A stretch of DNA of 64,000 nucleotides from a virus (lineage: Duplodnaviria > Caudoviricetes), in the IMG/VR virus record IMGVR_UViG_3300028805_000037, positions 96,001-160,000 of that record; one strand, given 5' to 3'. The notes under the pieces are model-generated. The model did not search any database, was not told where the DNA came from, and saw only the letters and a program-made list of their open reading frames with translations. This document shows, piece by piece, positions 7,929 to 63,949 of the stretch. The position numbers were made by a program, and so were the translations under genes. Position 1 is the stretch's first letter, and each line of letters begins with the position of its first letter.

Positions 7929-8402
7929 CTACTTATTAAGTGACTCTAAATAATAAAATATTTTTATAGATAAAGCTTCTACCAATGTATTAAATTCAGA
8001 AATATCATATAACTTTGTCTGACTAACAAAAGGACATATTAGATATCTTTTTTCTGTGTTTTCTTTTATACTATGATAATTATCTTTATCTACTTCACTA
8101 ATAGTTACATCATATACTTTATAGTTATTATCTGCATATATTTTTGCAAATTTTTTAAAAGCACCTTCTATCAAATCTGCTTTTATAACATCATAAAATC
8201 TATCAGAAACTTTATTATTTGATACGTCATTTAAACAGTCATATATTACTTTTTGTATATACTGTACATTCTTATCTTTTAGCTTCTGTAATTTATCTTT
8301 AAAACTAATCTCTCTAACTAAAGTAGGGTAATAAACATTTAGGTCTTCTGTACCTAAAGGTAAGTCTAATTGAGTTTCAGCTTTAATAAACCACCTAGTC
8401 AT
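7929..8402 (-). CDS. Hypothetical protein with MTRWFIKA leader
   Basis: ORF; shared N-terminal leader. Confidence 0.7.
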   Translation of the reverse strand: MTRWFIKAETQLDLPLGTEDLNVYYPTLVREISFKDKLQKLKDKNVQYIQKVIYDCLNDVSNNKVSDRFYDVIKADLIEGAFKKFAKIYADNNYKVYDVTISEVDKDNYHSIKENTEKRYLICPFVSQTKLYDISEFNTLVEALSIKIFYYLESLNK

Positions 8403-8420
8403 TTTTATTTTCCTATAAAT

Positions 8421-8615
8421 TTATTTTACTTCTTCAGCTATTATTGTATTTATATCTGTATTTGGAAATCTATAACAAAATATACTTTTAGCTTCTTGTT
8501 CATTATCTGCTTCAATAGGATGTATTTTAGGTCTAACATAATGACCATTAGCTAATTGAACTTTTATTATATACTTTTTTAAAGCAGACGCTTTTAACCA
8601 TCTAGTCATTATCAA
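8421..8615 (-). CDS. Small protein with MTRWLKAS leader (likely start at 8609)
   Basis: AGGAG RBS; shared leader. Confidence 0.7.
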   Translation of the reverse strand: MIMTRWLKASALKKYIIKVQLANGHYVRPKIHPIEADNEQEAKSIFCYRFPNTDINTIIAEEVK

Positions 8616-8618
8616 CTC

Positions 8619-9050
8619 CTATTTAACAGTTTTAACTGCCAATACATAATCTCCATTGGAATCTTTAACTGCTTTAAGTTTTACCCACCTTCTAGTATAC
8701 TCATCCCACCCGTAAATGTGCTGGTTCTTTCCGACAGAATCTTTCTCAAACAAAGGTAATACTTCTGAAGGATATACTTTTATATTTACATCAAACGTTT
8801 TAAAATCAAAAACAAATATATATGTTTTATTTGCATCTAGCTTATTTATCTGGTGATCAAGCACAACTTGAACTGTCTGCGTTACTTGATCTACTCCAAT
8901 TGTATAAACTAAAGGGTTTTTCTTTTCCTTATCTTCTAAATTATAAATCTTCAAATCTTCAAGTTTAATACCTGACACCGCATTATCATTAAATAAAAAT
9001 GAGATATTATTACTTGTCCTTCTAAAAATTCTTAAATTAATTCCTTTCAT
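8619..9050 (-). CDS. Hypothetical protein
   Basis: ORF with AAAGGAG RBS. Confidence 0.7.
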   Translation of the reverse strand: MKGINLRIFRRTSNNISFLFNDNAVSGIKLEDLKIYNLEDKEKKNPLVYTIGVDQVTQTVQVVLDHQINKLDANKTYIFVFDFKTFDVNIKVYPSEVLPLFEKDSVGKNQHIYGWDEYTRRWVKLKAVKDSNGDYVLAVKTVK

Positions 9051-9068
9051 TTTTCATTTTCTCCTTTA

Positions 9069-9785
9069 TTATTTCAACTCCTCTAATCTTTGATTAATTA
9101 TATTTAATATAGTTTTGACTTTTGTATACTTACTTATCTTAAGTAATAGTTCTTTATCTTCAAGTTTAGCTATAAATAACTTTCTATCATTAGCTTTCAT
9201 CTTTAATATCTTAGCAACGTCTTCTGGAACTTCCTCTATAACTTCTTCTTTCTTATTTAGTTCCTCTAAATCTTTTGCTTCATCTTTCAATACATCTGTA
9301 ATCTCATCTGTTTTTTCTTTTATAATCTCATTAACAGATTTTAATTGTCCTTCACCTGGTTTTTTACCTGGAAGAACTACAAACCCTGCTTCTATAGAAG
9401 CTTCATCTTTTATATTACCTTCTTTAACTACAACTTCAGATTGTTTTTCTGCTTCTATTTTTACAGATACGGGTTCTACATTACCTTCGTTTAATATATC
9501 TGCAGGAATTTCATCTTTAAATGTTCCACCTTTAGTAACTACAACTATATCTTCTTGAGTTTCTTTTTTAATTACTTGTGGTTGTTCAACCTTTGTAATT
9601 GAAGCTGGTTTGAAATAGTCATCCTGCTCAACTACCGTTATATTACCTTTTCTAATTTCTTCAACTACTGCCTTTACTTGTCTTAAGTCATTACACTTCA
9701 AAATATCAAATGTAACAATCATTCCTGGCTCAAATCTAATTCCTGCCAAACTCCAAACTCTGTTCATGTTTGATCTAATTTTCAT
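9069..9785 (-). CDS. Hypothetical protein
   Basis: ORF with AAAGGAG RBS. Confidence 0.7.
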   Translation of the reverse strand: MKIRSNMNRVWSLAGIRFEPGMIVTFDILKCNDLRQVKAVVEEIRKGNITVVEQDDYFKPASITKVEQPQVIKKETQEDIVVVTKGGTFKDEIPADILNEGNVEPVSVKIEAEKQSEVVVKEGNIKDEASIEAGFVVLPGKKPGEGQLKSVNEIIKEKTDEITDVLKDEAKDLEELNKKEEVIEEVPEDVAKILKMKANDRKLFIAKLEDKELLLKISKYTKVKTILNIINQRLEELK

Positions 9786-9807
9786 TTTTTCATTTTTCTC
9801 CTTTATT

Positions 9808-10275
9808 CTATTTTACTTCTGTATATTTTTTCCCATCTATTGTTGTTAAATTCTGCAAATACTTATCTTTAAGTTTAAATGGTATCTTGACCATCCCTAT
9901 ATGAATCCAGAACTTTCCAGATATTTTCTCCTTAATCAGCTGCCGATAACAAATATCAATCTTACCTTTTCTAATATCATCAAATACTTCATCAACTGTC
10001 TTACCTTTAACTATAAAGTCTACTGCTTCACCTAAACAATGTTGGCTGGTTTTATTTCCGCCAACTCTTTCATTTAATGCCTTTCCTCTAAATCCACTTG
10101 TAACTGTTATAGGTACTTTATAGTAATTACGAATTGGCTGAAGTATATAATTGGCAAGTATATATAAGTTATTCACATAAGGTTTCACTTCCTCATTTTG
10201 TTTGGGAAGTAAATCCTTATGTGAAGTTGTTAGTAGTTCATCGAGAGTGAAATTGGGTGAGAGTTGTGTTGTCAT
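9808..10275 (-). CDS. Peptidase M15A-family (Zn D-Ala-D-Ala type) endolysin-like protein
   Basis: LSPNFTLDEL, ITVTSGFR..LNERVGG..SQHCLGEAVD, WIHI motifs. Confidence 0.9.
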   Translation of the reverse strand: MTTQLSPNFTLDELLTTSHKDLLPKQNEEVKPYVNNLYILANYILQPIRNYYKVPITVTSGFRGKALNERVGGNKTSQHCLGEAVDFIVKGKTVDEVFDDIRKGKIDICYRQLIKEKISGKFWIHIGMVKIPFKLKDKYLQNLTTIDGKKYTEVK

Positions 10276-10283
10276 TTAATACT

Positions 10284-10646
10284 CTATATATTCTTAAGGA
10301 TGTACTTAACATCTCTATTTATCTCATCTAAAGCTGCTCTTGTTTCTTTTTGATTATCTGAAAGTTGTTGCTTTATTTCTTTTAATTCTGTTTGCATCAC
10401 GCTTAAGTCTTTATTTATAATAAGTTTTTCAGTTTCAAGATCAGCTACCCGATACTTTATTTCCTCTACATCTTTCTCCATTGCATATACTTTTGTTGGT
10501 ACTGTTTCTGAAACTTTAAGATATGTTCCATATATAAATATTAAAACAGTTCCACTTATTACGATTGCCCAAACAATTGTCTTAACATCTTTTAAAAATT
10601 TTACGGTTTTCTTAAGCATGATATACTCCAAAAAGTTAAAGTTCAA
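10284..10646 (-). CDS. Single-TM coiled-coil protein (holin-like/lysis-associated?)
   Basis: Hydrophobic IVWAIVISGTVLIFIYGTYL followed by heptad-like region; adjacent to the M15 peptidase. Confidence 0.45.
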   Translation of the reverse strand: MNFNFLEYIMLKKTVKFLKDVKTIVWAIVISGTVLIFIYGTYLKVSETVPTKVYAMEKDVEEIKYRVADLETEKLIINKDLSVMQTELKEIKQQLSDNQKETRAALDEINRDVKYILKNI

Positions 10647-11058: not shown

Positions 11059-11092
11059 AATAAATTAAATCTTATATCTATAACCTAGATAT

Positions 11093-11113
11093 AATATGAT
11101 AAAAATGTCAAGG
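11093..11113 (-). promoter_or_regulatory. Phage-specific motif copy 2 (CCTTGACA-TTTT-TATCATATT)
   Basis: Matches the 7-copy consensus. Confidence 0.8.
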
Positions 11114-11146
11114 GAAATTATTAGTATATTATTGTGGAATGCTTAT

Positions 11147-12121: not shown

Positions 12122-13357
12122 TTAAGAAGTCAACCAATCTTTAAGTTCGTCTAGCGTATAAAATATCTTATAATTTAAATTATTTTTCTTAAAACATTCC
12201 AACTTTCTTACGTCTAAATCTGTCCAAGTGTAAATAAGTTGCTTGTATTTATTATTCCTTTTAAATTTATTAGCATGTAATTTAATATCTTCAAGTTCTT
12301 TTAAATGCTCAATATTATTTTTGTCAAAAGGCTTCCCATTATGAAAAAATCCAAAATGACATTCTATATAAAGATCTTTTTCGGGTATATAAAAGTCACA
12401 CTTAAATGGATACTTCTCAGATTTATACTGAAATATTACTTCTTTAAATTTTTGTTGTAACATTTTATATGCGTGCTTCTCAAGTTTAGAACTATTAAAT
12501 GTATGATTACGTTTTTGAGTTTGATAACGTTTTTCTTGTATCTCTGGTAATCTAGCTTTATACTCAGCACTTTCGCTATAACTCTCAACACCATATTTCT
12601 TTTTAAAAGTTTCTTTTCTTTTTGCTAAAATTTTATTAAATTTCTTTTTATAAACATCACTCTGTTCATAATATTCTGTACCATATTTCTCTAAACACGT
12701 CTGTTTATATTTATCTTTAAAATCTTTAAGTCTGTCTCTATAATCTTTACTTTTAGTATAATGATCTACTCCATACTTTTCTAAACAAGTCTGCTTCACT
12801 CTATTTTTATATTCATCTGTCTGTGTATAACTTTCCTTACCAAACTTCTTTATATTGGTTTGTTTAACTTTTTCTTTAAATTCTTTAGTTTTACTATAAT
12901 TATCAACCCTAAATTTCTTCAAGTACGCTTGTTTCTTTTTATCTTTCACAACACCGCTTTGATTTGGACTATCTGTATTATATTTCTGTTTCCAAGTTTC
13001 TAAAACTTTCTGATGTACGTTTTTATCCTGTAAAGTACAACTTACACCATAACGTTCTATATTCGTTGCTATTCTTTTCTTTATAGACTCACTTTGTGCA
13101 GAATGCTTTCCAGAACACTCACGACTACAGAAATCTTTATAATGATGTTTTCTATCAAAAACAATTTTTGTTCCACACTGTTTACAAAAAAACTGTTTAT
13201 CTAAGTCTATATTATTCTTTAAACGGAAGCATAACTCGTGAATTGTTAAATTATATTTAAATAATACTTCTTTAACATCACCTGTTAAGAAATTTTGTTC
13301 TATATACTTTAAATTATATTTTTTAGTTTGTTTTAAAAATTCAATCAATTTTTTCAT
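12122..13357 (-). CDS. Putative homing endonuclease: Zn-finger, KYG(V) repeats, C-terminal PD-(D/E)XK/Vsr-like nuclease
   Basis: CKQC..FCSREC, many KxTxxEKYGV repeats, YPFKCDFYIP..LYIECHFGFFH. Confidence 0.8.
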   Translation of the reverse strand: MKKLIEFLKQTKKYNLKYIEQNFLTGDVKEVLFKYNLTIHELCFRLKNNIDLDKQFFCKQCGTKIVFDRKHHYKDFCSRECSGKHSAQSESIKKRIATNIERYGVSCTLQDKNVHQKVLETWKQKYNTDSPNQSGVVKDKKKQAYLKKFRVDNYSKTKEFKEKVKQTNIKKFGKESYTQTDEYKNRVKQTCLEKYGVDHYTKSKDYRDRLKDFKDKYKQTCLEKYGTEYYEQSDVYKKKFNKILAKRKETFKKKYGVESYSESAEYKARLPEIQEKRYQTQKRNHTFNSSKLEKHAYKMLQQKFKEVIFQYKSEKYPFKCDFYIPEKDLYIECHFGFFHNGKPFDKNNIEHLKELEDIKLHANKFKRNNKYKQLIYTWTDLDVRKLECFKKNNLNYKIFYTLDELKDWLTS

Positions 13358-13450: not shown

Positions 13451-14428
13451 TTAAGCTAAGTTTCTTACTCTTCCAGATACACCAGCACAGTTATAAATTC
13501 CCATGCCGATTATTTCGTAAGGAATTATATCATACTGAAGTAAAGGAATGTTATCAAATATAGAAACTTCAACAGCTTTTCTTTCCGGCAATCTTCCGAG
13601 TTTATCTGGAGTTGTCAATGTAAATACTGGCTGTTGGTTTTTACCATTTGCATCATAACCATAGTTTTTATCAAGTCTTGTAGAAGCAATAGCTCTGACA
13701 CCAAATATAGAACCAAAGTTTCCTGTTTCCAATTGGATGTTCAAAGATACTGGATCCAAATCTTGAGAATCCCATTTCAATATATCTGCATATGTTTTTG
13801 CACCTAGCAAATACGTTTTAGCAATCAACTGTCTTTCAGTTATATCACCAAACATTTCTGCAAAATCTGCTTTTGCAATTGTAGTTGTAGTAGAACCATA
13901 TGTAGCCATTGCAGCTGGGTTAGGATTTTTAACTGCTGCTGATTTAACCAAATCAAATATCATGTCATCTTCAGCTATAGCCATAGATATTGCAGCTCTT
14001 TCTTTTGCTCTGTCGAATACAGGATATTTTCTTACAGCTAATTCTTGTTTCTTAATAACTTCATTTACTGTAACTTCAAACGTAGGAATACCAATTCTCT
14101 TGATGCCTTGTTCAAATACTGGAGCTTGTCCTCTAGCAGCCATTTTAACAGCACCAAATTCTGGCATATCCATATCGTATACAGGAATATCTCCAGTAGG
14201 TATTGTGTCAACCATCAAAAGTTTTCTACCAACACCAACATAATCCAATCTCGTTTTCAACGGACCAGACAAAGCGAAAGCTATTCTTTGATATCCGCCT
14301 GGTGCATTCCAGTACATGTTAAATTTTTGTTCTTTTGCTTCCATTGATACAGGAGCAGCTGCATTAACTGAAGCTTTTCTTGCTAATGCTGTATCGCCCC
14401 ATAATGATATATTATCTATTGTACCCAT
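13451..14428 (-). CDS. Major capsid protein (HK97 fold inferred)
   Basis: Last gene of the protease-scaffold-decoration run; strong RBS and terminator; LKTRLDYVGVGRKLLMVD..IPVYD and AIAEDD segments resemble large-phage MCPs. Confidence 0.8.
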   Translation of the reverse strand: MGTIDNISLWGDTALARKASVNAAAPVSMEAKEQKFNMYWNAPGGYQRIAFALSGPLKTRLDYVGVGRKLLMVDTIPTGDIPVYDMDMPEFGAVKMAARGQAPVFEQGIKRIGIPTFEVTVNEVIKKQELAVRKYPVFDRAKERAAISMAIAEDDMIFDLVKSAAVKNPNPAAMATYGSTTTTIAKADFAEMFGDITERQLIAKTYLLGAKTYADILKWDSQDLDPVSLNIQLETGNFGSIFGVRAIASTRLDKNYGYDANGKNQQPVFTLTTPDKLGRLPERKAVEVSIFDNIPLLQYDIIPYEIIGMGIYNCAGVSGRVRNLA

Positions 14429-15001: not shown

Positions 15002-16207
15002 TTATTCAAACAATTTATCTAAACCTGTATCTGTTCCACCACTATATTGGGAAAATATTTGTGGAATGTTTTGTCCAGGCATTCTTTTTGATGCTTTTAC
15101 TTCTGTGAAATCTACAACTTCTTCTTTTTTATTATCTTTCTTTGCTTCTCCACCGAAAAGACCTGCTACATCTTTATCAGCTTTTTCTCCATCAGAAAGT
15201 TTTACAATTTCTTTTACAACATCTAATACAACTTTCAAAGCTTTTTCATCTGCTTTTACAAGTTTATCTTTGAAAACATTTTCTTTTTGTACTTTAACTA
15301 CTTTCTTGATTTCAGAGATAATTGCATTGATGTCTTTATCTTTGTTACCATTTGAAATTTCTTCTTTCATGTTCTTATTTTCATCTTCAAGTTTCTTTAC
15401 TTCTTTATCAGCATTTTCTTTTTCTTTTTTCATTTCATCTAATTCAGCTGACAATTTAAGAAATTGTTCTTTCAATGAAGATTGTCTATTAATAGATTCT
15501 ACTGCGTCTCCACCACCATTTCCTGGCAATCTACCAAAATATGATTTAACTGGGGAAGAAACCGCACCAGCATCTTTAACACCTTTACCAGCATCTGCTT
15601 TAGCTTCTTTTTCATTTACTGAAACTATTGCACCTTCAGTTGCTTTTGCTGGTTTATTTTTACCATCTTCTTCTTTATTAAATGTAAATACCGTTTCATC
15701 TTCTTTTGCTGCTTCTTTCTTTATAGAAGCTTTTTTAACCATTTCTGCATGACTTGCAGAAGCTTCTTTACAGAATTGTTTAAAACCTTCAAAATCTTTA
15801 CATACAGAAGCAATCTGTTTTGCAATAACTTCTGGCGTAGGTACACCTGCTTTTTTATAAATTGCGTCTACGTCAACTTTTGCAAATTCAATTTTATCTT
15901 CTACTTTTTCTTCTACTTTTTCCATCTCTTCATGACCTTTAGCTTCTTGAATATCTTCTTTAACACTATCTAATTTAGCTTCTGCTTCATTTAAATTTTC
16001 AATAGCTTTATCTTCAGTTACTGGAGTACCTTCAACTTTATTTTCAGCTTCAACTTTATTTATTTCTTCCTCAGCTGCTTCAATTTTCTTTTGCATATCC
16101 AAAGGCAAAACTTCTGAAGCACTTATAACTTTAACATCTTTACCTTCTCTTCCAATAAAGAAAGAATCAGCAAATGACTTACCTGCTTTATAAAATAACT
16201 CAAACAT
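15002..16207 (-). CDS. Putative capsid scaffolding protein
   Basis: K/E-rich coiled coil between protease and capsid genes; multiple KKA/KAS motifs. Confidence 0.65.
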   Translation of the reverse strand: MFELFYKAGKSFADSFFIGREGKDVKVISASEVLPLDMQKKIEAAEEEINKVEAENKVEGTPVTEDKAIENLNEAEAKLDSVKEDIQEAKGHEEMEKVEEKVEDKIEFAKVDVDAIYKKAGVPTPEVIAKQIASVCKDFEGFKQFCKEASASHAEMVKKASIKKEAAKEDETVFTFNKEEDGKNKPAKATEGAIVSVNEKEAKADAGKGVKDAGAVSSPVKSYFGRLPGNGGGDAVESINRQSSLKEQFLKLSAELDEMKKEKENADKEVKKLEDENKNMKEEISNGNKDKDINAIISEIKKVVKVQKENVFKDKLVKADEKALKVVLDVVKEIVKLSDGEKADKDVAGLFGGEAKKDNKKEEVVDFTEVKASKRMPGQNIPQIFSQYSGGTDTGLDKLFE

Positions 16208-16324: not shown

Positions 16325-17020
16325 TTATAATGATTCAAATGTATTTTGTAATTCTTCTATATATTCTTTTTTAGAATTTGTTTTTGGTAAATTAACAACA
16401 TAACTCATTTTTTGTAATGAACCATTGTCTTTCACAAATACTTCCCCAACGGTTTCATCTTCTTTAGAAGCCTTTACATAAATTCCTGGAAATACTTCTA
16501 CAGAAGCTTTCTTATCAACTATTTCTTCATCAACTTCATCTAATACGCCTTCTGTAAATGAAGTAGGAGCTTTATTACCTCCACCCTTACCTACATCTGG
16601 TGATACTGTTTTTAAACCTTCCAATACTTTAGGTGATATACTTTTTACCTTCTCTTGAATCTTAGTTGCCATTGATTTTTCAAATAAAGAAAAATCATTA
16701 CTAAATTCAGAACGAAGTTTATCATCTATTATTCTATCTAAAATTCTTTTTACTTTATTTTCAACTGCCTTTTCAATCATATCATCAACATCTGCAAACA
16801 TACCTACAAGGTTCAAACCTTTTTCTTTTGGTTTGCTCGCACCTTTATCTGCTACATTTGTTTCTTTATTTGGTGCATCACCTTCAGCAGCAGATATAAA
16901 AGACTTCTCAGCAGTCCTTTCTATTTGTTTTGTATCAAAATTTATATTAGGTGCTTTTTCACCTTTATCTTTCCAATAATTTGAATAATGTTGCGCTAAT
17001 CTATTAAATTGATCAGCCAT
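16325..17020 (-). CDS. Putative prohead core/scaffold-associated protein
   Basis: GGAGG RBS; follows motif copy 3; KKAS and VKAS motifs. Confidence 0.55.
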   Translation of the reverse strand: MADQFNRLAQHYSNYWKDKGEKAPNINFDTKQIERTAEKSFISAAEGDAPNKETNVADKGASKPKEKGLNLVGMFADVDDMIEKAVENKVKRILDRIIDDKLRSEFSNDFSLFEKSMATKIQEKVKSISPKVLEGLKTVSPDVGKGGGNKAPTSFTEGVLDEVDEEIVDKKASVEVFPGIYVKASKEDETVGEVFVKDNGSLQKMSYVVNLPKTNSKKEYIEELQNTFESL

Positions 17021-17086: not shown

Positions 17087-17851
17087 TTATTTCATATTTT
17101 TTGCCATAACATTTAAAGCTTGAATTAATGTATTGATTACTTCTTTATCGTAATGTCCTTCTTTTATTTTATCTTTATTTTGTGCATAAACTTGGAATAT
17201 TCTAGCTGTATCATCGGCGGGAGTTTCTACTATACTATCTTCACAGAAACATAAACCATAATTAATCTCTGCACCATACTCATTAGTTGAAGCATTTATA
17301 AGTTTACCTTTACAGTAATGCATATCATTTGGATTCATATGTTCACATAACCCTTCAAGTGTAGTTGTATAATTACCACAAATACAACATTTAGCAGCTC
17401 CTGCAAATGTACCCATTGAAGTACCTGAAACCAAACCTGACTCTACTCTATGTAATAAACCAGGATACTTTTGTTCTGCTAACTGCCTATCTACTGCACA
17501 TAACAATTCAACATATGCGTGTTTTTGTGCAGGCTCAACAAAATTAGCATCTAAAATTATTCCCATAGAATTGTTTGGATCGTCTGAATTATGATTATAA
17601 AATACACCTTTACCAATAAATGAAGAATATGCTTTTTTAACTTCATCGTATGGAAATATATCACCATTAGCATTTCTTTCATCACACGTAATTGCTCTGT
17701 TGCGGTAGTACAAATAATTTTCAGGGTCAAATTCAAATGCTTTTATTACATTCTTTGATGCTTGTCTATTAAAACCATACCAACCTTCAAGCATATCGTT
17801 GGCTGATTTATAAACTTCAATCGGTTCCATCATACATAATCTTTTAAACAT
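17087..17851 (-). CDS. Prohead (capsid maturation) protease
   Basis: NANGDIFP..VFYNHN..GIILDA..SGTSMG..EDSIVETPAD: His and Ser motifs typical of prohead proteases; sits between portal and scaffold. Confidence 0.75.
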   Translation of the reverse strand: MFKRLCMMEPIEVYKSANDMLEGWYGFNRQASKNVIKAFEFDPENYLYYRNRAITCDERNANGDIFPYDEVKKAYSSFIGKGVFYNHNSDDPNNSMGIILDANFVEPAQKHAYVELLCAVDRQLAEQKYPGLLHRVESGLVSGTSMGTFAGAAKCCICGNYTTTLEGLCEHMNPNDMHYCKGKLINASTNEYGAEINYGLCFCEDSIVETPADDTARIFQVYAQNKDKIKEGHYDKEVINTLIQALNVMAKNMK

Positions 17852-18203
17852 TATCTTCTCCTATACTAAAATCTGGATATTTTTCATTAAACATATCTAT
17901 TAATTGTTTATCTTCTTTAGCTAACTGTTTTGCATTTTTAGGTAAAGTTAAATCTTCTTCCAAACAAACTTTTAAATATTCTTTTAACAATTCTTTATTC
18001 GTAATCTTATCTAACAATGCCTGATCTACATCAAGTCTATGTTTTATACACATACTTAAATAATCTTCAAGTAACTTCTGATCACTTACCTTTTCAATTA
18101 AATAATCAATTGAACTATAAAAAGGTTGATCTTCTTTTATACTATTATTTAACAATTGTTCTGCTTCATTATATTGATTAGATTTTATAAACCATCCAGA
18201 CAT
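17844..18203 (-). CDS. Hypothetical protein with MSGWFIKS leader
   Basis: ORF; shared leader. Confidence 0.7.
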   Translation of the reverse strand: MSGWFIKSNQYNEAEQLLNNSIKEDQPFYSSIDYLIEKVSDQKLLEDYLSMCIKHRLDVDQALLDKITNKELLKEYLKVCLEEDLTLPKNAKQLAKEDKQLIDMFNEKYPDFSIGEDNV

Positions 18204-18338
18204 TTATTTATCCTTACATTCTTTAGACTTTTTTTCTTCCTCTTCTTCTTTTTTAACTTTATCTATATCAACAACTGCTTTAACTTTTTTTAACACATTC
18301 ATTGGTGTTACTACACCAGATCTTTTAAACATATTCAT
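18204..18338 (-). CDS. 44-aa small protein missed by the ORF track (MNMFKRSGVVTPMNVLKKVKAVVDIDKVKKEEEEEKKSKECKDK)
   Basis: AAAGGAG RBS; stop abuts the next ATG. Confidence 0.6.
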   Translation of the reverse strand: MNMFKRSGVVTPMNVLKKVKAVVDIDKVKKEEEEEKKSKECKDK

Positions 18339-18350: not shown

Positions 18351-18735
18351 TTATTGTCCAAGTCCACTAAGTGCATCTCCAATATCTACACCACCTTCTT
18401 CCATATAAGAATTAAGCCACTGTAAAAATTGTGTTTTTGTATAAAAAAACCTTATAATTTAAATTATTTTTCTTCGCAATTTCAAGCTTTAATGGATCTC
18501 TAACTGTCCAAATCTTAATCGCATCAATATACGATGACTTCTTCTCACCTTTAAAATTAATTTCTTCTGATTCTTTATCTAAAGATATATTGTGCTTTAA
18601 TCTATAACAAAGTTCTTCAAATGTAAATTTATATTTTCTTAAAATTTCTTGTATATCTTGTGATAAATACTTCGGTAGCATAGCAGATATTCTTAGTGAT
18701 TTATGTGATTTTATATATTGTAATAATTTCTGCAT
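18351..18735 (-). pseudogene. Internally deleted, frameshifted remnant of the KYG-repeat endonuclease family
   Basis: N-terminus (..ELCYRLKHNISLDK) joined directly to C-terminus (WTVRDPLKLE..KNNLNYKVF); removing one T from the T7 run at 18443-18449 restores KVFYTKTQFLQWLNS, matching KIFYTLDELKDWLTS of 12122-13357. Confidence 0.75.
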
Positions 18736-20465
18736 TATACTTCACCTACTAATTCTTCTAAACCCTCTGGTACACTTGGTTTTAAATCCTCACCACCTTC
18801 TGAAAATTTAGATCTAGGACTTAAATCACCTTCACCGTTAGGTAATATTGCTGGCTCTTCAGTCTTTAATTCATCTTCTGGTAAAGGTGGTCTTCCGCCA
18901 CCATTGGTTGCTCCACCCATTTCTCTTCCTGCTTTACCTTGCGGATTTTCTTTTGTTTTATTTAAATCTTTATAATTATTATTTTTAAATTCACCATTTA
19001 AAATTCTATTTCTCAACGCTTTTTCTTTTGCCAAATCATCTTTTGCGGCTTTATAAATTGGATCAAATACTGTATCTGCTTCTCTATTAAATTTCTCTTG
19101 TAACTGATCCATATCCCAACCAAACATATCTGCAACAAGCTCAAATGGAATTTCTTTTTTATCTCTAAGTCTAAGTAACATCTCTTGTTCTGATTGTGAA
19201 CTTAAAAGATTTACTCTTTCTTTATAGAAAAATTTTGGTAGTATATAATTATTATATGAAGAACTTAATCTTAATTTATGTTGTACTTCTGCTTGAGTTC
19301 TCTTTATTAAGCCATGCTCTCTTGCAATTGGTAAAAATACTTTCTCTCTAATAAGTCTTTCAAGTAAATTTCTATTCATTAAGTATCTATGCATAACAAC
19401 TTTCATATTAATCATATCTTTTGCATAGGGTCCAGCTTCGCCACCAAGCATTGCATCATTACAGAATAATCCAATCATAACTCTTTTTTGTGCAAAATCA
19501 AATTCCGTTTTTAAATCCTGCCAATTTCCATGTTGATCTTTTATTTCGAGATTAACAAACGGATGTGTTATTAAATTATAATCTGGATCATTTATTCCAG
19601 CCATAATCAATGCTTTTGTTTCATTAAAATGTTTCTTATCTGGGAACCAGCCCTTTGTTTCGGAACCAACTTTCCAATGTTTAATCGGATACATTGCTCT
19701 ATCTGCGAAAGTAAACTGCAATAACCTTAATTTATCTTCATACATTAAATCTTTTAAACATGATTTTAGTATAGATTCACCTTGCAAAGAATATTGAGCA
19801 GGTCTATTTGCAAAGTGAATCACTCTTTCATTCGCCAATTGATAAGGTGTACCTGTTAATATAGCATTTCTAAATTCTGTAGGAATTGTAGAAGCTACTG
19901 CCTGATCAGCAGCACTGCTAGACTGTAAAACTTTCTTTGTTGATTCATCCGGTTTAAGAAAATATACTGCATTTCCACCAGCATAAGATCTATGTATCTC
20001 AATATTTTCTGGAGGGAATTGATTAAATCTTACCCACTCGGCATTTGTTTCATCCCAATCACCATACATATAAGCATTGCCTAATAACCAAAAATCTCTA
20101 TTAAGATTAATCATCATAGTTAAAATATCTAATCTATCTTTTATATCATTATAATATTGTTCAATTTCTCTATCATCACATCTTAATTCAAAATCACTTA
20201 AAGCATAAGAGGAATGTAAATCGATTACAGAATGTACTAAAGGATTATATGTATAATAATGTCTTAACCTTGCATTTAGCTGTGTGTCATTTTCACGAGG
20301 AAACATCATTAATACTGGATCCATTAAAGGATCTACATACATCATAGGAACACGGTTGATGGAACTATTTGGGTTACCCATCATTCCCATTCCACCATCC
20401 ATCATAATAGTATTGGCACGCCTATTAAAACCCTTACTGCTTTTTATCTCTTTTATATTTGGCAT
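18735..20465 (-). CDS. Portal protein
   Basis: YNPLVHSVID, DFWLLGNAY, PPENIEI, VIHFA..GESIL, RVMIGL features; lies between terminase and protease. Confidence 0.85.
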   Translation of the reverse strand: MPNIKEIKSSKGFNRRANTIMMDGGMGMMGNPNSSINRVPMMYVDPLMDPVLMMFPRENDTQLNARLRHYYTYNPLVHSVIDLHSSYALSDFELRCDDREIEQYYNDIKDRLDILTMMINLNRDFWLLGNAYMYGDWDETNAEWVRFNQFPPENIEIHRSYAGGNAVYFLKPDESTKKVLQSSSAADQAVASTIPTEFRNAILTGTPYQLANERVIHFANRPAQYSLQGESILKSCLKDLMYEDKLRLLQFTFADRAMYPIKHWKVGSETKGWFPDKKHFNETKALIMAGINDPDYNLITHPFVNLEIKDQHGNWQDLKTEFDFAQKRVMIGLFCNDAMLGGEAGPYAKDMINMKVVMHRYLMNRNLLERLIREKVFLPIAREHGLIKRTQAEVQHKLRLSSSYNNYILPKFFYKERVNLLSSQSEQEMLLRLRDKKEIPFELVADMFGWDMDQLQEKFNREADTVFDPIYKAAKDDLAKEKALRNRILNGEFKNNNYKDLNKTKENPQGKAGREMGGATNGGGRPPLPEDELKTEEPAILPNGEGDLSPRSKFSEGGEDLKPSVPEGLEELVGEV

Positions 20466-20482: not shown

Positions 20483-20674
20483 TTAATTTTCATTTTCTAA
20501 TTTTTTCATTTTTTCAATATATTCATTTACCTTAGGTTTTATACCGTTTAATAAAGCATATTGTATATTACTTATATCTATATTTGCATCGATATTATTT
20601 TTATTTAATTCCTGAGATAAGTAGTATACACGCTTTTCAATATCATCTATTATATATAGTAAATCATTTTGCAT
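20483..20674 (-). CDS. Small hypothetical protein (start moved to MQNDLL at 20674)
   Basis: The longer track call overlaps the upstream gene by 65 nt; the internal ATG has a purine-rich AGGA upstream. Confidence 0.5.
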   Translation of the reverse strand: MQNDLLYIIDDIEKRVYYLSQELNKNNIDANIDISNIQYALLNGIKPKVNEYIEKMKKLENEN

Positions 20675-20846
20675 TATTCTTTTCCTGTTCTTCTTTCCAA
20701 AGATTCTCATTACCTTCAAATGTACCATTTCCTAATTCACCTGTTGGTAATACTTCCATTACTTGATTATCTTCTAAACTTTTGTTAGAACTATTATCTA
20801 TCTCATTTGATTTATTAACTTCTGAAAAAATCAACCATCTAGACAT
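20664..20846 (-). CDS. Small protein with MSRWLIFS leader
   Basis: Shared leader; LGNGTFEG resembles LNHQGFEG of 24187-24438. Confidence 0.65.
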   Translation of the reverse strand: MSRWLIFSEVNKSNEIDNSSNKSLEDNQVMEVLPTGELGNGTFEGNENLWKEEQEKNNAK

Positions 20847-24186: not shown

Positions 24187-24438
24187 CTATACAATTGCGT
24201 TTTTAGTATGTCCTTGTCCGTTTTCTAAAGGCTTAAAGTTAGTTTTATCACTAACTTCACTTACAGGATTTTTACCATCACCTTCAAAACCTTGGTGATT
24301 TAATTGAACACCTTTTCCTTCAGTAGGATGTTCTGATGTACTATTCTGCTTTTGCTCAACAATCTTTACTTCATTTTGAAATGTATTTGGATCTTGATCT
24401 ACACCTTTCATATCATTTGCAATTAACCATCTAGACAT
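24187..24438 (-). CDS. Small protein with MSRWLIAN leader
   Basis: ORF; shared leader. Confidence 0.7.
   Translation of the reverse strand: MSRWLIANDMKGVDQDPNTFQNEVKIVEQKQNSTSEHPTEGKGVQLNHQGFEGDGKNPVSEVSDKTNFKPLENGQGHTKNAIV

Positions 24439-30784: not shown

Positions 30785-30785
<1 letters not shown>
30096..30785 (-). CDS. dnaG: DNA primase catalytic core (TOPRIM), lacking the Zn finger
   Basis: YLHQRNI..FGLGY, ILIPIFD..IVSFAAR, LFGLN, VILVEGYWEV, VVALCG, LLDPDKAG, DIDEFL. Confidence 0.85.
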
Positions 30786-32715
<1,930 letters not shown>

Positions 32716-45468: not shown

Positions 45469-45813
45469 TCACTTATTTAGCTTATCTAGAAAGCATGCTT
45501 TTAATAATATAAGATAATTAATACTGTCACCAATCTTCTCATTTAACAAATCTTTAGTAGGTAATTGTCCAGTCTTTTCAAAACGTTTAACAATATCATA
45601 AACACTTACAATATGTTTATTCATCATACCAGCTAAAGCATATACATTAGTACAATCTAGTAGCTTAGCTGCTTCATTAAAATTATGTAGTTTATCTACA
45701 TCAGTTGAGTATTCTTTTGATTTACTCATTAAAATTGTATTTATACTATTTATACAATCTTCTACAACTTTATTAAAATCATGTGCATTCATTTTTAAAT
45801 CTCCTTTAACCAA
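45469..45813 (-). CDS. Nucleotide-modification-associated/dNTP pyrophosphohydrolase-like small protein
   Basis: KSKEY..DKLHNF..KH..EKIGDSINYLILL pattern. Confidence 0.5.
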   Translation of the reverse strand: MVKGDLKMNAHDFNKVVEDCINSINTILMSKSKEYSTDVDKLHNFNEAAKLLDCTNVYALAGMMNKHIVSVYDIVKRFEKTGQLPTKDLLNEKIGDSINYLILLKACFLDKLNK

Positions 45814-52564: not shown

Positions 52565-55500
52565 ATGCTTACAGAACAAAATGGCATACAAGTAGATAAA
52601 TTTTATCCGCCTACGGATTGGCAATATAGTTTTCCTGAAGGGTATACAAGGTTGGAGTACTTGGAAGGTACTGGGACACAATGGCTTAACACAGGAATAA
52701 CAGCAAGTCAAGATTTACGAGTAAGAACAAAGATTTATAGTAAATCTAAAAATAATCAATCTGTTTTTTGTACAAGAAGTTCACAAGGAAGTAATAATTT
52801 TGCATTGTTATTAGTTAATGGCTATTTTAGACCTTGTTATAATACTACTTATTCTAATAGTGATCTGAAATATAATATTAATACTTTATATGATGTAGAT
52901 TTTAATAAAAATAATTTTTATGTTGACGGTGAATTAGTTAAAACTTTTACTTATAATACTTTTTCAAATGATGTTTCTATGAGAATTGCTAATAGTATTA
53001 ATGCTGGTGAAATTTATTATATTGGTAGAATATATCCATATTTGATATATAATAATGATGTGTTAGTTGCTAATTTAATTCCTGTTAAAAGAAATTCAGA
53101 TGGTGAACTAGGAATGTTAGATTTAATACAAGATGTATTTAGAACAAATCGCGGAACAGGAACATTTATAGCAGGACCTGAGCTTTACTTAAATAATTCA
53201 CAAATAGACATAAGGCAAAAGAATAACATAAACTTTGTAGAAAAATATAAGTTCAATGAAAACAATGAATTGATATGGGCTAATCCACAATTAAATTTAA
53301 GTGGACCTGTAAATTATAGTGTGGTAGGCAGTCCTACGATAACGGATAATGTAGTTAGTGAATTTAGCGACAGTAATTATATAGAATTACAACAACCATT
53401 TATTTTAAATGTCAATACTATTTCAGAAATTATAATAAAAATTAATTTTGATAATGAAAGTTCAGGCCAAGTTTTTTTAGGACATCCTAACACTTATGGA
53501 ATACAAATGATTAGAAGTTCCGGTGATAGTAAAATTCATTTATATTTAGGAAATAATAATAGTTGGAGTTTAATAAATAATGCAGTAGGAACAACGGTTT
53601 TATCTTCTTTAACAAACTATTATATTAAAGTAGTTTTTAACAAAGGTAATGTGCAAGTTTTATTGTCAACAGATAAAATAAATTGGACAACTGAAATTAA
53701 CAGAAATATAACTTTGACACAAGAATATAGTTATATTATAGATTTTGGTAAAGGTAGAGCAAGTAACCAATATCTTAAAGGTTCAATAGACCTCAAAGAA
53801 ATCTACATCAAAGTCAACGATGAAATGTGGTTTTACGGTAAAAACTACACAAGTGAAAACTATGCACCAGTACCTGCAGGGTTGAATTGTAAAATAAAAG
53901 GACCAGTAAATTATACAGAAGTTGGAACATTGACAAATAATGATGGAATATATAGTGGATTTAGTGCAAACGATTATTTAACAGCAACCGCATTAGATTG
54001 TAATAAAAATTTTGAACTTAATACAGTATTTACAACTGCTTCTAATTGGACATCAAGTGGAACAATTATAACAAATAATCTTGCTTATAGAGGTGGAGTT
54101 GTTATTGATAGTAAATCAATTAGATTTCAATGTAGGACAACAGTTCCAGAACAATATGCTTTAGCTTTTGACACACAAGCAGTAGCAAGTACAAAATATA
54201 CTGTTAATTGCAAACGAGAAGGAAATACATTAACAATAAGATTATATGTAAATGATGTATTAACTGAAACAAAAACTGATAATTTAACAGGTATTACTTT
54301 TAGTGTTGGTAATAATTTAATGATTGGTTATGGGAATAATGGCCAATTTAATGGTTCCATAGACCTCAACAATACATACATCAAAATAAATAACCAATTA
54401 TTGTTTGGAACAGAATATACAACACCAAGTATAGGCTATGTAAATACACAAACACAAGAATTTATACCTGCACCAACTGATGGAATAAAATATTCACAAA
54501 CTCGTGACCTTAAAGTAATACCACCTGAAGATAATACTATTACTTTGTTGTATGGTGTTGCAAGTGATTTTAGTAAATATTCTTTGTTTGGTTTGTTAGC
54601 AAGTGTATCAAGTGGAAATTACGATGTTTATATTGACGATGTATTATATGCCACAACAACCAAGAATACACAAACAGACATTGATTTTAGTACATTATGT
54701 AGTGAATATGTACCAATAGGAACTTGTACTACACCTGAAGAGTTAGTATTACATAAAATTGTGGTTAAACCTAATACAAATGGAAGCACAATTACACAAT
54801 TTAGATGTGCAAGAACTACTGGTGTTTCTACCAATCAACAACAGGGTGTATTGTGGGGACATTTTGAATTAGATAATAGTATAGCCTTAAATGCAGCATT
54901 TAGTGCAGGTTCTAATCAATATATTCCTATTGTTTTACAAGCAGTTACAGCTAAAAATGATAGTTTAAATGTTGATGTTATAAGTACAAGTTTTCGTGCA
55001 AGTTCATTATACTATTTACCTAAAATTACTAATGCAACTAATTTTAATTCTGCATTTAGAGGAAGTAAATTAAAACACATTAGAATTAGAAATTATAATG
55101 GATTTGGAACTTATACTTATGATAATTGTACATTATTAGAAAAGATAAGTATTAATGAAGTAACAAAAAAGGACATTCGTGAATTTGTTTTTAATAACAA
55201 TTATAATTTAAAATTATTACCATTTTTAAGTTCAACAAGAGATAATTTAATACAAGCTATTACATGTGCTCAAAAACTATATCCTACAAAAATAGACATA
55301 ACAGATAATACCACAACAAAATTAGGAATGTATGGCACTTCCACCTACCCAATGCGAGGTCTTCGTGGTTTGAAAGTAAGTAACGAAGCACCATTTACAG
55401 AAACAAGTCCACAAATTAATGTAAGTTACACAGGACTTGACAGAGATGCATTGGTAGAGTTGTTTAACAGTATGCCTTACAATGTTGGGTATACAGTTCA

Positions 55501-60219: not shown

Positions 60220-60258
60220 AATACTTTTTATCTTTTTATCATGTAAAATTTAGAAAGT

Positions 60259-60298
60259 TTTAAAAATAGAGAATAGATATCTATTCTCTATTTTTAAA
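60259..60298. terminator. 40-bp perfect palindrome between convergent genes (bidirectional terminator)
   Basis: TTTAAAAATAGAGAATAGAT|ATCTATTCTCTATTTTTAAA. Confidence 0.7.
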
Positions 60299-60538: not shown

Positions 60539-60564
60539 TTCTTCTTCTCCTTTATTTATAGTTT
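60531..60564. repeat. Direct repeat copy A (stop-RBS-start junction)
   Basis: TTCTTCATTTCTTCTTCTCCTTTATTTATAGTTT; second copy at 61018-61050. Confidence 0.8.
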
Positions 60565-61025
60565 TGTTTATTAATTAAATATTGTTGTGCCAAACTTCTT
60601 ATAACATCAGGATCTATTTCATTTTTTGATAATTTTCTAGCCATTTCATTACAAAATTGACGATAATTATAATATGTTATATTGTCATTTATAGTATTTC
60701 TAATTTCTCCATAATTAAACATTTTTGCGTATCTATTTAATTTATTTATAAATTGACTTTCTAATTCTAAACCAGCAAAATAATATTGTAAAATTAAATT
60801 TTCAGGAATAAGAGTAGTATTTTTATTTATTTTCATAGGAATATCTTGGATCCATTCACAAAAACTAAACATTTCATCAGTCCAATGTTTAAAACGTTGT
60901 TTTCCTTTTGTTAATATAATTTTAATTGCATGATCCATAAATCTTTGTGAACGATTATCTGAAAGTTCTCTAATTACATCTTTTCTACTAAAAGCAAAAG
61001 CTTTTATTTTAAACCATTTCTTCAT
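60552..61025 (-). CDS. Hypothetical protein with MKKWFKIKA leader (weak DUF29-like)
   Basis: Leader; FMDHAIKI..HWTDEM. Confidence 0.65.
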   Translation of the reverse strand: MKKWFKIKAFAFSRKDVIRELSDNRSQRFMDHAIKIILTKGKQRFKHWTDEMFSFCEWIQDIPMKINKNTTLIPENLILQYYFAGLELESQFINKLNRYAKMFNYGEIRNTINDNITYYNYRQFCNEMARKLSKNEIDPDVIRSLAQQYLINKQNYK

Positions 61026-61050
61026 TTCTTCTTCTCCTTATTTATAGTTT
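61018..61050. repeat. Direct repeat copy B
   Basis: TTCTTCATTTCTTCTTCTCCTTATTTATAGTTT (one T fewer than copy A). Confidence 0.8.
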
Positions 61051-61208
61051 GTAGTAAAATTATTTTCTTGTAAATATCTAAATTTCGTACATTTACCATT
61101 TAACCAATCAACATTTTTAAATTTCTGTTTTGAACAAGTATATTCAATTCCAGATTTCTTTTCATAAAATACACCATATTTACAATCTTGACATTTTCTT
61201 AAAAACAT
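61038..61208 (-). CDS. 56-aa Cys-rich protein missed by the ORF track (MFLRKCQDCKYG...TTNYK)
   Basis: AAGGA RBS; four Cys; sigma70 promoter upstream. Confidence 0.6.
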   Translation of the reverse strand: MFLRKCQDCKYGVFYEKKSGIEYTCSKQKFKNVDWLNGKCTKFRYLQENNFTTNYK

Positions 61209-61238
61209 TTTACTTTTCCTTTTATTTTTGTTATAATA

Positions 61239-61267
61239 ATTATATAAAATTTTTTAGTGAATGTAAA
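61239..61267 (-). promoter_or_regulatory. Sigma70-type promoter
   Basis: TTTACA-17-TATAAT. Confidence 0.65.
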
Positions 61268-61336
61268 TACCTTTTAAAAATTTAAATATTCATTACAAAA
61301 TTTAAATTTAAAATATGAGTTTTAAGGAGTGTAAAT

Positions 61337-62890
61337 ATGGATCCTATATTGCAAGATAAATTATTAGGTATTGGTACTCCTCAATCAGGTACCAATATGG
61401 AAAGAAATGAATTAATTGGCTTAATTCGTAGAATGATAAAAGAAAATAAATATACTGTTGATTATATTTTATCATATTGTGAAAGTTTATGTTATTCTTA
61501 CCGAATGGCATCAGATATATTTGAAGAACTTACTGGAATGAATCCTAAGATACTTGTTAATAATAATGAATATTATCAAAATCCAGTATTTGTTCCTTCT
61601 ATGACATTAGCCTGGGGTTATAAAAAAGCAACAAAGAATGAAGCATATTATATTGTACCTTTTGAATATGGTTATGGTGTAATGTATAAAAATGAAAAAG
61701 ATAACCCTGAAATGAAATTTGAATATGTATCTATTGATGAGGCTGTAAATAAATTAAAAACTTTAGTAACAAAAGTATTTACAATAAATAAAATTATCAC
61801 TGATAATTGTTTAGAAAATAATGATATACAATTAAATTCAAATACAGTTCATAATGTAAATAATCCATATTATAGTACGCCTTTACAAGAATTAAAACAA
61901 TCATATATAAATAAAGTAATTGATCAAAGCCAGTTTGAGAAAAAAGCATTCAGATTAGTAGCTGAAGAAAAAATTACAACAAGTGAAGCTGAAGATGCAA
62001 TGAAATGGTTAGATGAATTACAAAAAGAAAGAGATATTGAAGAATTTGAAGATGTAGAATTTGGTAATCTTAAAAATGATGATAAAATGAAAATTCAAGA
62101 AGAGAATAAACAGCTTGAAGGTTCATTAGAATTTGAAGATATTGTTGATGAAATATATACAACAATTGGTGACGAATATGCTGATAAAAATAAATTAGGA
62201 AAAATATATAATCAAAATAAATCATTTTTTAAAGGTTTAGATAAAGAACAAGCTGCACAAAGATTATATGAATTATATTTAGGCTTTAGTAAAGATGAAA
62301 TCAAAAACAAAGAAAAATATGTAAAAAAAGATATTAATGCTTCTCTTAAAAAGAAAGCTGCAGATGAAGATATAGAACTTGAAGATATTGAAGATAAAGA
62401 TATAATAAAAGACACTATTGATGAAATAAATGATACTGATTTTAATAATCTTGTTAATGATATTACTCCAGAGCAATATCTTGAAGAAGAAAGTAAAAAT
62501 GATCAAGTAATAAAAATAAATGAAAAAGTAAATAAAATTATAGATGAATTTACATCAAAATTTGAAGAATTTACAAAATATAAATTACAATTAAATACAT
62601 ATAAATTACAAATATTAAATCAAGGTAATACAGATACAAAATTAAAATCTATTGAAGATGATGAATTAAATGCACAAGCTATTGTACAAATTATTATAAC
62701 TATTGCTCCAGTTGAAAATCTTAATAATACTAAAAAAGGATTAGCAATATTTAGTATAAATAAAGATAAAGTAAATTTCAACGGAGTGATTAGGATGCAA
62801 GATGGATTCGTGGCGTTCAGTGAAGATGGTTTTGATGCAGCATTTGAAGATGATAAACAAGCAAAAGATGAAATTGAAAATTTAATATAG
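61337..62890 (+). CDS. Hypothetical protein, paralog of 20846-22150
   Basis: AAGGAG RBS; shared LTG.NP..P..P....WG..YG.GV block and C-terminal LA.F.I block. Confidence 0.75.
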   Translation: MDPILQDKLLGIGTPQSGTNMERNELIGLIRRMIKENKYTVDYILSYCESLCYSYRMASDIFEELTGMNPKILVNNNEYYQNPVFVPSMTLAWGYKKATKNEAYYIVPFEYGYGVMYKNEKDNPEMKFEYVSIDEAVNKLKTLVTKVFTINKIITDNCLENNDIQLNSNTVHNVNNPYYSTPLQELKQSYINKVIDQSQFEKKAFRLVAEEKITTSEAEDAMKWLDELQKERDIEEFEDVEFGNLKNDDKMKIQEENKQLEGSLEFEDIVDEIYTTIGDEYADKNKLGKIYNQNKSFFKGLDKEQAAQRLYELYLGFSKDEIKNKEKYVKKDINASLKKKAADEDIELEDIEDKDIIKDTIDEINDTDFNNLVNDITPEQYLEEESKNDQVIKINEKVNKIIDEFTSKFEEFTKYKLQLNTYKLQILNQGNTDTKLKSIEDDELNAQAIVQIIITIAPVENLNNTKKGLAIFSINKDKVNFNGVIRMQDGFVAFSEDGFDAAFEDDKQAKDEIENLI

Positions 62891-62893
62891 GTA

Positions 62894-62922
62894 TTTACAA
62901 ATTATTAAAAATTTATTATAAT
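62894..62922 (+). promoter_or_regulatory. Sigma70-type promoter for the small-gene cluster
   Basis: TTTACA-17-TATAAT. Confidence 0.7.
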
Positions 62923-62955
62923 ATTTATATAAATTAAATAAGAGAGGTAATATAA

Positions 62956-63201
62956 ATGTCTTGGACAAAAGTATTAAAAGCAAGTATAAAATTTAAAGAT
63001 AGTGATTATGTTGATTATATGGATCAAATTGAATTTCAAGATTATTTTTGTAAACAAAATAATCTTGAAGAAGGTACAATTTATTTTGATGGAGAAGAAT
63101 GTGTAGATGCAGAAACTGGAAAAACTATTCCAGGAGCTGATTTAGGACAAACATATAAAAAGATGTCTGATGCAATTAAAAAATATTTTAAAATTAAATA
63201 A
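62956..63201 (+). CDS. Small protein with MSWTKVLKAS leader
   Basis: GAGG RBS; leader. Confidence 0.7.
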   Translation: MSWTKVLKASIKFKDSDYVDYMDQIEFQDYFCKQNNLEEGTIYFDGEECVDAETGKTIPGADLGQTYKKMSDAIKKYFKIK

Positions 63202-63202
63202 A

Positions 63203-63412
63203 ATGAATTATTGGACTAAAATACTTGCAAGCAAATATAAAATAGTTAAAACACCAGTTTATGAAACTGAAGATTATGTTACTAAAAAATCTGATAAATA
63301 TACATATAGAATACTTAAAGATGGCGATTATGTTAAAGATAAAGAATCAGGTTTAAGATTAGAATTTAGTTCAAAAGAAGAAGCACAAAAATATATTAAA
63401 ATGGAGAAATAA
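63203..63412 (+). CDS. Small protein with MNYWTKILAS leader (start moved from 63170)
   Basis: ATG 1 nt after the upstream stop; leader matches its neighbour. Confidence 0.7.
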   Translation: MNYWTKILASKYKIVKTPVYETEDYVTKKSDKYTYRILKDGDYVKDKESGLRLEFSSKEEAQKYIKMEK

Positions 63413-63414
63413 AA

Positions 63415-63735
63415 ATGGTAAAGTATTTTAAAAGAAGTATAGCAAAAGAAGAATTTAAACCTTTTTATGTAATTAGTAAACCAAATTATGAATGGTTAAT
63501 TAGTAAAGATGGTGATTATAGTGGTTATAGTGCTGATAGTGAAGATTATAAATTTTATAATAAGTTAGATGCTGAAAAAGTATTAAATTCAGTAATACCA
63601 GATTTAATAGAAGAATCTAATTTTGATGATGATAATGAAGTTACTGAACAAGATATAAGAAATGAATATACAATACAATATATAGATAACGAACAAAAAG
63701 CACAAGAATTTGAAGATTCATTTAATAATATATAG
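63415..63735 (+). CDS. Small acidic protein with MVKYFKRSIA leader
   Basis: GGAG RBS; leader. Confidence 0.7.
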   Translation: MVKYFKRSIAKEEFKPFYVISKPNYEWLISKDGDYSGYSADSEDYKFYNKLDAEKVLNSVIPDLIEESNFDDDNEVTEQDIRNEYTIQYIDNEQKAQEFEDSFNNI

Positions 63736-63745
63736 GAGAATATAA

Positions 63746-63949
63746 ATGAGTAAATTTTTTAAAGTTAAGAAAGCAGAAAATATAATTGTAGATAAATATA
63801 GAACAATTCTTATAAATGCTATAGATGAAGATTTAGTTGATCCAAAGCAAATAGCAAAAGATTTAGCACGGTATATATCAGAAGAAATGTGTAAAGATTT
63901 TTGCAGAATTTATGAAATAAAAGATATCAGTGAATTAAATAATGAATAA
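63746..63949 (+). CDS. Small protein with MSKFFKVKKA leader
   Basis: AGGAG RBS; leader. Confidence 0.7.
   Translation: MSKFFKVKKAENIIVDKYRTILINAIDEDLVDPKQIAKDLARYISEEMCKDFCRIYEIKDISELNNE

Follow-up and report, generated by a model that had tools for sequence, protein, structure and literature searches.

Genome-matched N-terminal tags on small, unrelated proteins of two phages apparently joined in one record: candidate capsid-targeting propeptides

What could make small phage proteins with dissimilar bodies begin with nearly the same few residues? The question is raised by a 64,000-nucleotide stretch of a Caudoviricetes virus (bases 96001-160000 of the 300,445-bp IMG/VR record IMGVR_UViG_3300028805_000037; hereafter, the window), for which an earlier note, made from the letters of the DNA, had listed ten related N-termini and proposed that a single leader loads diverse cargo into the phage head for injection. 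We called genes on the whole record (421 genes) and recovered all ten N-termini at the starts assigned to them, each with an ATG codon and mostly with an AGGAG-like ribosome site; the start at 63203 is the correct one for the second gene of its array. These peptides, which we call tags, fall into two families that follow two parts of the record, and we put the chance that they are capsid-targeting propeptides, a variant of the idea known from bacteriophage T4, at about even. Positions refer to the window unless given as genome positions, which refer to the record, and an arrow within a motif marks a predicted cut.

The tags are specific to gene starts. When the 300-kb record is translated in all six frames, M[ST][RG]W[LF] appears six times, and every one of these matches is at the start of a gene (i.e., 8402, 8609, 18203, 20846, 24438, and genome 296210), and six of the eight [ST][RG]W[LF] matches among 94,676 predicted residues begin at residue 2. 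Tryptophan occupies residue 4 in 14 of the 421 proteins, against an expectation of about 4. Likewise, WT[KIR][IKV] is N-terminal in 9 of 12 matches (with the corrected start at 63203), and [KFY]F[FK][KR] in 7 of 30 (0.7 expected). In all, the record encodes 22 tagged proteins, small and, once their first 14 residues are removed, mutually unrelated by BLAST, so that a short N-terminal peptide is common to otherwise unrelated proteins, as in the class of the T4 capsid targeting sequence (CTS). The dissimilarity of bodies described in the earlier note thus holds with one exception, a clear paralogue pair formed by the gene at 60552-61025 and a gene outside the window (genome 231507). Three larger late proteins (22483-24129, 28218-29009, and 4118-5104) have amphipathic N-termini of F-x-x-F-x-K type (MGLFNNFLNKF, MSIFDKFKKIF, and MFDFFKKKS), which could represent either another class of tag or helices of membrane type; such looser versions of the leader are conserved in relatives (these three in the close relative L003), but they are statistically inseparable from K/F-rich N-termini in general.

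Selection acts on the peptide, as judged from the mixing of synonymous codon families among 22 distinct tag instances from the record and three close relatives (L001-L003): Ser2 is encoded by TCT/TCA as well as AGT/AGC, Arg3 by AGA, AGG, or CGT, and Leu5 by TTA, TTG, CTA, or CTC. In fast-evolving orthologues, residues 1-6 are identical at 40 of 48 positions, whereas residues 7-30 are identical at only 120 of 202; for the 83-aa (amino acid) protein described below, residues 1-6 are identical and residues 7-30 match at 6/33 to 9/24. Relatives with 48-50% guanine-plus-cytosine (GC) content (L006 and L004) carry the related tags MRWLSAA, MWTKTA, MWVRTA, and MQWTKNA. These data bear on the idea that the pattern is an RNA-level signal, i.e., a translation-initiation or operator element across the start codon, or a by-product of AT-rich start contexts. 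In its favor, four of the six genes directly following one promoter type in the second part of the record (phage B, below) start with a W tag, and TGGAC(A/T)A is fairly constant across the tags of that part; yet the Ser, Arg, and Leu codon families are mixed, the Trp codon (TGG) is not AT-rich, and the motif recurs both inside proteins and in the relatives of 50% GC, making an RNA-level origin highly improbable. An excess of the motif over chance, on which the earlier note depended, is confirmed. In one of the GC-richer relatives, a 477-aa protein (L006:20043-21476) begins with the W tag MQWTKNAD and contains the internal repeats AWMKKAE and AWLKNPV, followed by repeated modules; its make-up resembles that of a cargo polyprotein.

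That there are two versions of the tag is explained by the make-up of the record, which seems to combine two related phages. It holds two full core gene sets that have diverged from each other: portal, protease, capsid protein, terminase, sheath, SbcCD, and helicase recur in second copies, 23-34% identical to the first, and an exact 334-bp repeat within a tail-fibre gene (53451-53784, plus strand, i.e., genome 149451-149784) recurs at genome 288227-288560, likely marking the junction; tail-fibre segments shared by the two parts of the record are 88-92% identical in nucleotide sequence, including the 334 identical bases. The contig ends of the record overlap by 145 bp. In a related 73-kb contig (G001, portal 95% identical), homologues of 295-300 kb and 1-2 kb are joined directly to those of 146 kb downward, and G001, being continuous across that join, therefore lacks 150-288 kb. 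The CheckV completeness values of this contig (45%) and of G002 (38%) correspond to genomes of ~162 kb, and relatives of the second portal lie on contigs of 131-144 kb. The record is therefore best read as probably a composite of phage A (~162 kb; genome 288.6-300.4 kb plus 1-149.4 kb) and phage B (~139 kb; genome 149.5-288.2 kb), joined at the 334-bp repeat, with window positions 1-53.4 kb probably belonging to A and 53.8-64 kb to B. The join could be an assembly chimera, which is our guess, or a real cointegrate. A search of related loci for homologues of a 517-aa protein near the junction found no relative, and a megablast of 24 kb against phages gave no match; exact look-ups returned only short, independent Logan contigs, which break not at the A/B junction but exactly at a perfect 40-nt palindrome between convergent genes (60259-60298; genome 156259-156298). 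A supposed 300-kb jumbo phage that is probably two phages affects other readings of this record as well. Both parts carry members of a multi-copy family of ~410-aa proteins with MxxLLxYIK starts, 32-45% identical, which are probably homing or mobile nuclease genes (12122-13357, 18412-18735, and 45795-47024; genome 80656, 82648, 262584, and 296979), including a 107-aa fragment after the portal gene.

The two versions, or dialects, of the tag track this division. Part A holds all six tags of MSRWL type and part B all 16 of KWT/KFFK type, so that the single leader on ten proteins of one phage gives way to two motif families in two genome parts. A relative of phage B (L023, portal 74% identical) retains the B dialect, and a scan of IMG/VR for the MSRWLI coding pattern found it in multiple copies only in contigs of the A clade, the remaining matches being chance-like. 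A homologous pair of cargo proteins of 51 and 53 aa (57% identity) starts with MSRWL in the A-clade contig L003 and with MNNWT in B; the similarity of the 53-aa protein to a protease-2 module is no more than suggestive (E 0.096).

The dialects also bear on whether the tag might be read by host machinery, as a ClpXP-type N-terminal degron, a Prp/L27-like processing site, or an export signal. ClpX N-motifs resemble short N-termini that are basic and hydrophobic, and the hosts are presumably AT-rich, Firmicutes-like bacteria, in which Prp-cut phage proteins are known. The N-terminal extension cut by Prp, of the ribosomal protein L27 type, is defined by N-L-Q-F/H-F-A↓S, and the LQFFA motif occurs in none of the listed N-termini. 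Nor do the tags resemble Sec, Tat, or lipoprotein signals: there is no hydrophobic core of at least ~10 residues, and the sequence is charged or polar from residue 7-12 on. ClpXP is encoded by phage G (PMC12484599), while no ClpP is encoded in the record. The fibre segments common to A and B make a common host probable, yet the two phages differ in dialect, and homologous cargo switches dialect, which makes a host-encoded reader improbable.

In phage A, the tagged genes are interleaved with the genes of head assembly. The head module occupies 13.4-27.5 kb on the minus strand and opens with the large terminase (1027 aa; 24442-27525), which is directly followed by a hydrophilic tagged protein of 83 aa (MSRWLIA↓N; 24187-24438). 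After three further genes comes a hydrophilic, acidic tagged protein of 60 aa (MSRWLIFS↓E; 20664-20846), two genes upstream of the portal (18735-20465), i.e., with one gene between them; after the portal and two further genes, a tagged protein of 119 aa (MSGWFIKS↓N; 17844-18203; MSRWFRKS in the L001 orthologue) overlaps the start of the head-maturation protease gene (17087-17851). The protease is followed by two scaffold-like proteins of 231 aa (16325-17020) and 401 aa (15002-16207), a 168-aa protein, and the major capsid protein (13451-14428). A phage-specific promoter, CTTGACA-N5-ATCAT, lies ahead of the head-module genes, with 11 copies, all within genome 14-146 kb. A-type tags thus adjoin terminase, portal, and protease on late transcripts. 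Outside this module, still on the minus strand, are tagged proteins of 157 aa (MTRWFIKA↓E; 7929-8402), whose tag is kept in the L001 and G001 orthologues, and of 62 aa (MTRWLKA↓S; 8421-8609), whose G001 orthologue reads MSRWLQA↓S on a diverged body. The large terminase has an HNH endonuclease-like insert (residues ~630-890), which is probably an intein or homing element, and intein domains also occur in portal and terminase homologues of relatives.

In phage B, tags follow the protease (genome 250969 and 252889) and the portal (genome 265681 and 266291), and others stand in arrays beside tail genes. Within the window, the 157-aa member of the paralogue pair (MKKWFKIKA↓F; 60552-61025, minus strand; its paralogue starts MKWIKIIA↓M) is followed by a four-gene array on the plus strand, encoding proteins of 81 aa (MSWTKVLKA↓S; 62956-63201), 69 aa (MNYWTKILA↓S; 63203-63412), 106 aa (MVKYFKRSIA↓K; 63415-63735), and 67 aa (MSKFFKVKKA↓E; 63746-63949). 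The promoter ahead of the array (TTTACA-N17-TATAAT; 62894-62922, plus strand) had been called early-type; it is a match to a sigma-70-like consensus only, and most tagged genes lie in structural gene blocks.

The product of 17087-17851 is assigned to the PHROG of head maturation proteases, and its AlphaFold model (predicted local distance difference test score, 86) has T4 gp21 (5jbl) as best fold match, followed by herpesvirus assemblins (probability 0.97-1.0). A prohead protease of the gp21/assemblin fold is thus encoded in the head module, as in T4. His87 and Ser145 are invariant in 100 homologues and are the only two catalytic residues assigned; with the modeled fold, they suggest an assemblin-like enzyme. 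The protein family is broad, with 1927 homologues that are mostly long fusions (400-2462 aa). Within it, C155, C158, C169, and H171 are nearly invariant, and this four Cys/His insert in the protease domain (residues 155-171) is probably a zinc ribbon. In every relative examined (including L003-L006), the protease and a small gene just upstream (18204-18332) start with M-F-x-[RK], which is a second conserved N-terminal motif beside the tag. In L022, a relative whose portal is 58% identical to that of phage B, a ClpP-family protease adjoins the terminase, a bS21 gene is present, and none of 24 genes carries a W tag; this relative might serve as a natural control for whether tag and protease are linked.

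The second half of the tag recurs inside head proteins. Both dialects end in Ala/Ser preceded by Lys or Ile, and K-x?-A-S occurs 9 times in the head proteins of A (1.65 in composition-matched shuffles) and 16 times in those of B (2.35), numbers reached by none of 5000 shuffles in either case, the shuffling controlling for composition alone; the enrichment of K-x-A-S in the capsid, scaffold, and protease proteins of each phage is 5-7 fold. Candidate sites lie at the end of the B protease domain (DIKA↓S near residue 226) and 30-40 residues from scaffold C-termini. In A, the 231-aa protein contains DKKA↓S, YVKA↓S, and DKGA↓S, and the 401-aa protein VKKA↓S and EVKA↓S, both partly conserved in relatives, the latter 31 residues from the C-terminus and hence resembling a herpesvirus maturation (M) site. 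Sites also stand in capsid N-terminal arms (ARKA↓S in A, within a W...ARKA↓S segment at residues 10-20 that is kept in relatives, and IKKTA↓S in B) and, again as IKKTA↓S, at the N-terminus of the B portal. A disordered linker in the A protease model (residues 24-37) holds a tag-like W...RQA↓S. In relative L005, protease and scaffold form one 900-aa protein, in which KEA↓S immediately precedes MFEL, the conserved beginning of the scaffold portion. The B protease (739 aa) even holds whole tag copies, FFKIKKA↓S and WFKIA↓S, as internal linkers of its C-terminal extension, which also includes a DUF5661 module (E 4e-11); in L004, the same domain is a free protein starting MRWLSAA. The fusion to the B head protease of a domain that leads with a tag in a relative is, among other points, indirect support for the capsid-targeting reading. 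Neither a family-wide repeated motif nor a Trp motif was found in 150 protease-scaffold homologues, and site motifs appear to be lineage-specific.

From these observations, the tag can be proposed to act as an N-terminal propeptide of 7-11 residues that is recognized by the head-assembly machinery of the phage itself. The first half of the tag (Met, 1-2 residues, usually Arg/Lys, and then Trp/Phe plus a hydrophobic residue or Thr) would direct the protein to the scaffold/protease core of the prohead during assembly, while the second half, Lys- or Ile-rich and ending in Ala/Ser, would be where the gp21/assemblin-fold head protease cuts. The tag would be removed after loading, as with the T4 CTS, and each phage would pair its own dialect with a protease, scaffold, portal, and capsid set of its own. 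A simpler version, in which the tag is a protease-cut propeptide with no address function and the proteins enter the prohead by other means, would fit the internal copies of the motif in capsid, scaffold, and protease proteins. Three features speak against it: (i) the bodies are unrelated, small, and fast-evolving, so that the shared tag is the sole common element able to bring the cargo in; (ii) the aromatic first half is conserved beyond the needs of a P4-P1 site; and (iii) that half switches with the genome on homologous cargo. We consider a bare cutting site unlikely.

Alternatively, the tag may be an interchangeable plug, a docking peptide for another phage-encoded partner such as tail, baseplate, neck, or a chaperone (e.g., GroEL/ES). 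Tagged genes do stand beside tail, fibre, or lysis genes (7929-8609 and 60552-63949; genome 161540, 170377, and 270814-271563), phage A encodes GroEL/GroES, and a dialect that tracks the phage is what any phage-encoded reader would give. Such docking is nevertheless rather unlikely, as the second half of the tag matches a motif whose enrichment is specific to capsid, scaffold, and protease proteins, entire tags form linkers within the head-protease polyprotein, and many cargo proteins are tiny, hydrophilic, and disordered-looking. The GroEL (533 aa) and GroES (109 aa) genes lie at 30785-32715 behind a sigma-70-like promoter, and the two proteins were named from N-terminal sequence alone.

Several observations weigh against a head-loading propeptide. 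Several tags lack a clear K-A-S ending (e.g., those in IFS, IKS, or ILS), the structural blocks do not include two of the B tags (genome 230882 and 231507), and some tagged genes sit behind sigma-70-like promoters. K-x-A-S is a short motif, K, A, and E abound in scaffolds, and the W...K-x-A/S segment in capsid and protease N-termini could be structural instead of a cutting site. Searches of all tagged proteins against PHROGs and Pfam returned nothing above cut-off, with no known virion or anti-defence domain in any cargo, and a comparison of the 157-aa cargo with the ESM Atlas gave no usable match; the assignment of the cargo to anti-defence or host takeover in the earlier note thus finds no recognizable domain behind it. 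That note's proposal is partly supported: the tag is peptide-level, N-terminus-specific, and lineage-wide and lies in head modules, whereas the single leader, the early promoter, and the anti-defence cargo find no support.

As for known systems, the closest comparison is the T4 CTS, carried by IPI, IPII, IPIII, Alt, and gp24 and removed by gp21. Shared features are an N-terminal propeptide of 10-19 residues (a putative one here) on unrelated, fast-evolving small proteins, a protease of the same fold, small core proteins encoded between portal and protease genes, and a two-part layout. In the T4 CTS, residues 4 and 7 serve targeting, and residues 8 and 10 serve processing (PMC9026906); here, an aromatic first half is joined to a small-residue end. 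In contrast to T4, the tag is basic and anchored on Trp or Phe-Phe, there are more tags per genome (6 and 16), the lineage is phage G-like, and the function is a proposed one. The predicted cut also differs, following Ala/Ser (K-x-A↓S) here and Glu (L/I-x-E) in T4: Glu follows Ala in some tags only, and the recurring element is a Lys-preceded Ala/Ser. The earlier idea of a leader that ends at a protease site would fit the enriched K-x-A↓S end and the gp21/assemblin fold, but not the site rule of gp21.

The predicted cut resembles that of herpesvirus assemblins, which cleave Ala↓Ser or Ala↓Thr in two places, a release (R) site that follows the protease and a maturation site close to the C-terminal end of the scaffold (e.g., YLQA-T and VQA-S in pseudorabies virus; PMC4498786). 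Likenesses extend to the fold, to an N-terminal protease that is fused to the scaffold in many relatives, to candidate sites placed where the protease domain ends and 30-40 residues short of the scaffold C-terminus, and to the site sequence, in which Ala precedes Ser and follows an aromatic, an aliphatic, and a Lys residue (in the 231-aa protein, YVKA↓S); the four-Cys insert sets the phage protease apart. To our knowledge, herpesviruses do not use a cut site as an N-terminal address tag on unrelated cargo. In the large phages phiKZ and SPN3US, head proteins are likewise trimmed at a short motif by a gp21-family protease (gp175/gp245; PMC5694885), but the propeptides of their head and ejection proteins are mostly longer than 100 residues and cut after Glu, and a short leader common to these proteins is not known. 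Among cultured phages, the closest relative is Bacillus phage G (portal 29% identical), in which a tag of the form R-L-x-K-K-A/S stands on at least eight proteins around the head genes; eight of nine R[LI]x0-2KK matches in 45 kb are N-terminal, and the phage G protease carries EKVA↓S and LKIA↓S.

If the tag is a head-loading propeptide, its cargo may be loaded, cleaved, and injected, and we tentatively extend the idea, with low confidence, to an orthogonal, phage-specific address code. Two phages of the same host, each with a dialect matched to its own protease and scaffold, would load their own variable small proteins and inject them with the DNA as anti-defence or takeover effectors of the first minutes; cargo genes that move between phages would be re-tagged, and the code would span the phage G-like clade. 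The dialect switch on homologous cargo is a natural experiment on the co-evolution of address and reader, and phage G offers a testable handle in a cultivable phage. If this code exists, head loading would be programmable in a cultivable megaphage. The head-loading reading by itself, if right, would label a set of orphan genes as probable injected proteins, with a simple sequence rule for finding cargo in metagenomes. T4-style capsid targeting would then be a general device of large phages rather than a peculiarity of T4, here with a Trp anchor and an assemblin-like cut after Ala.

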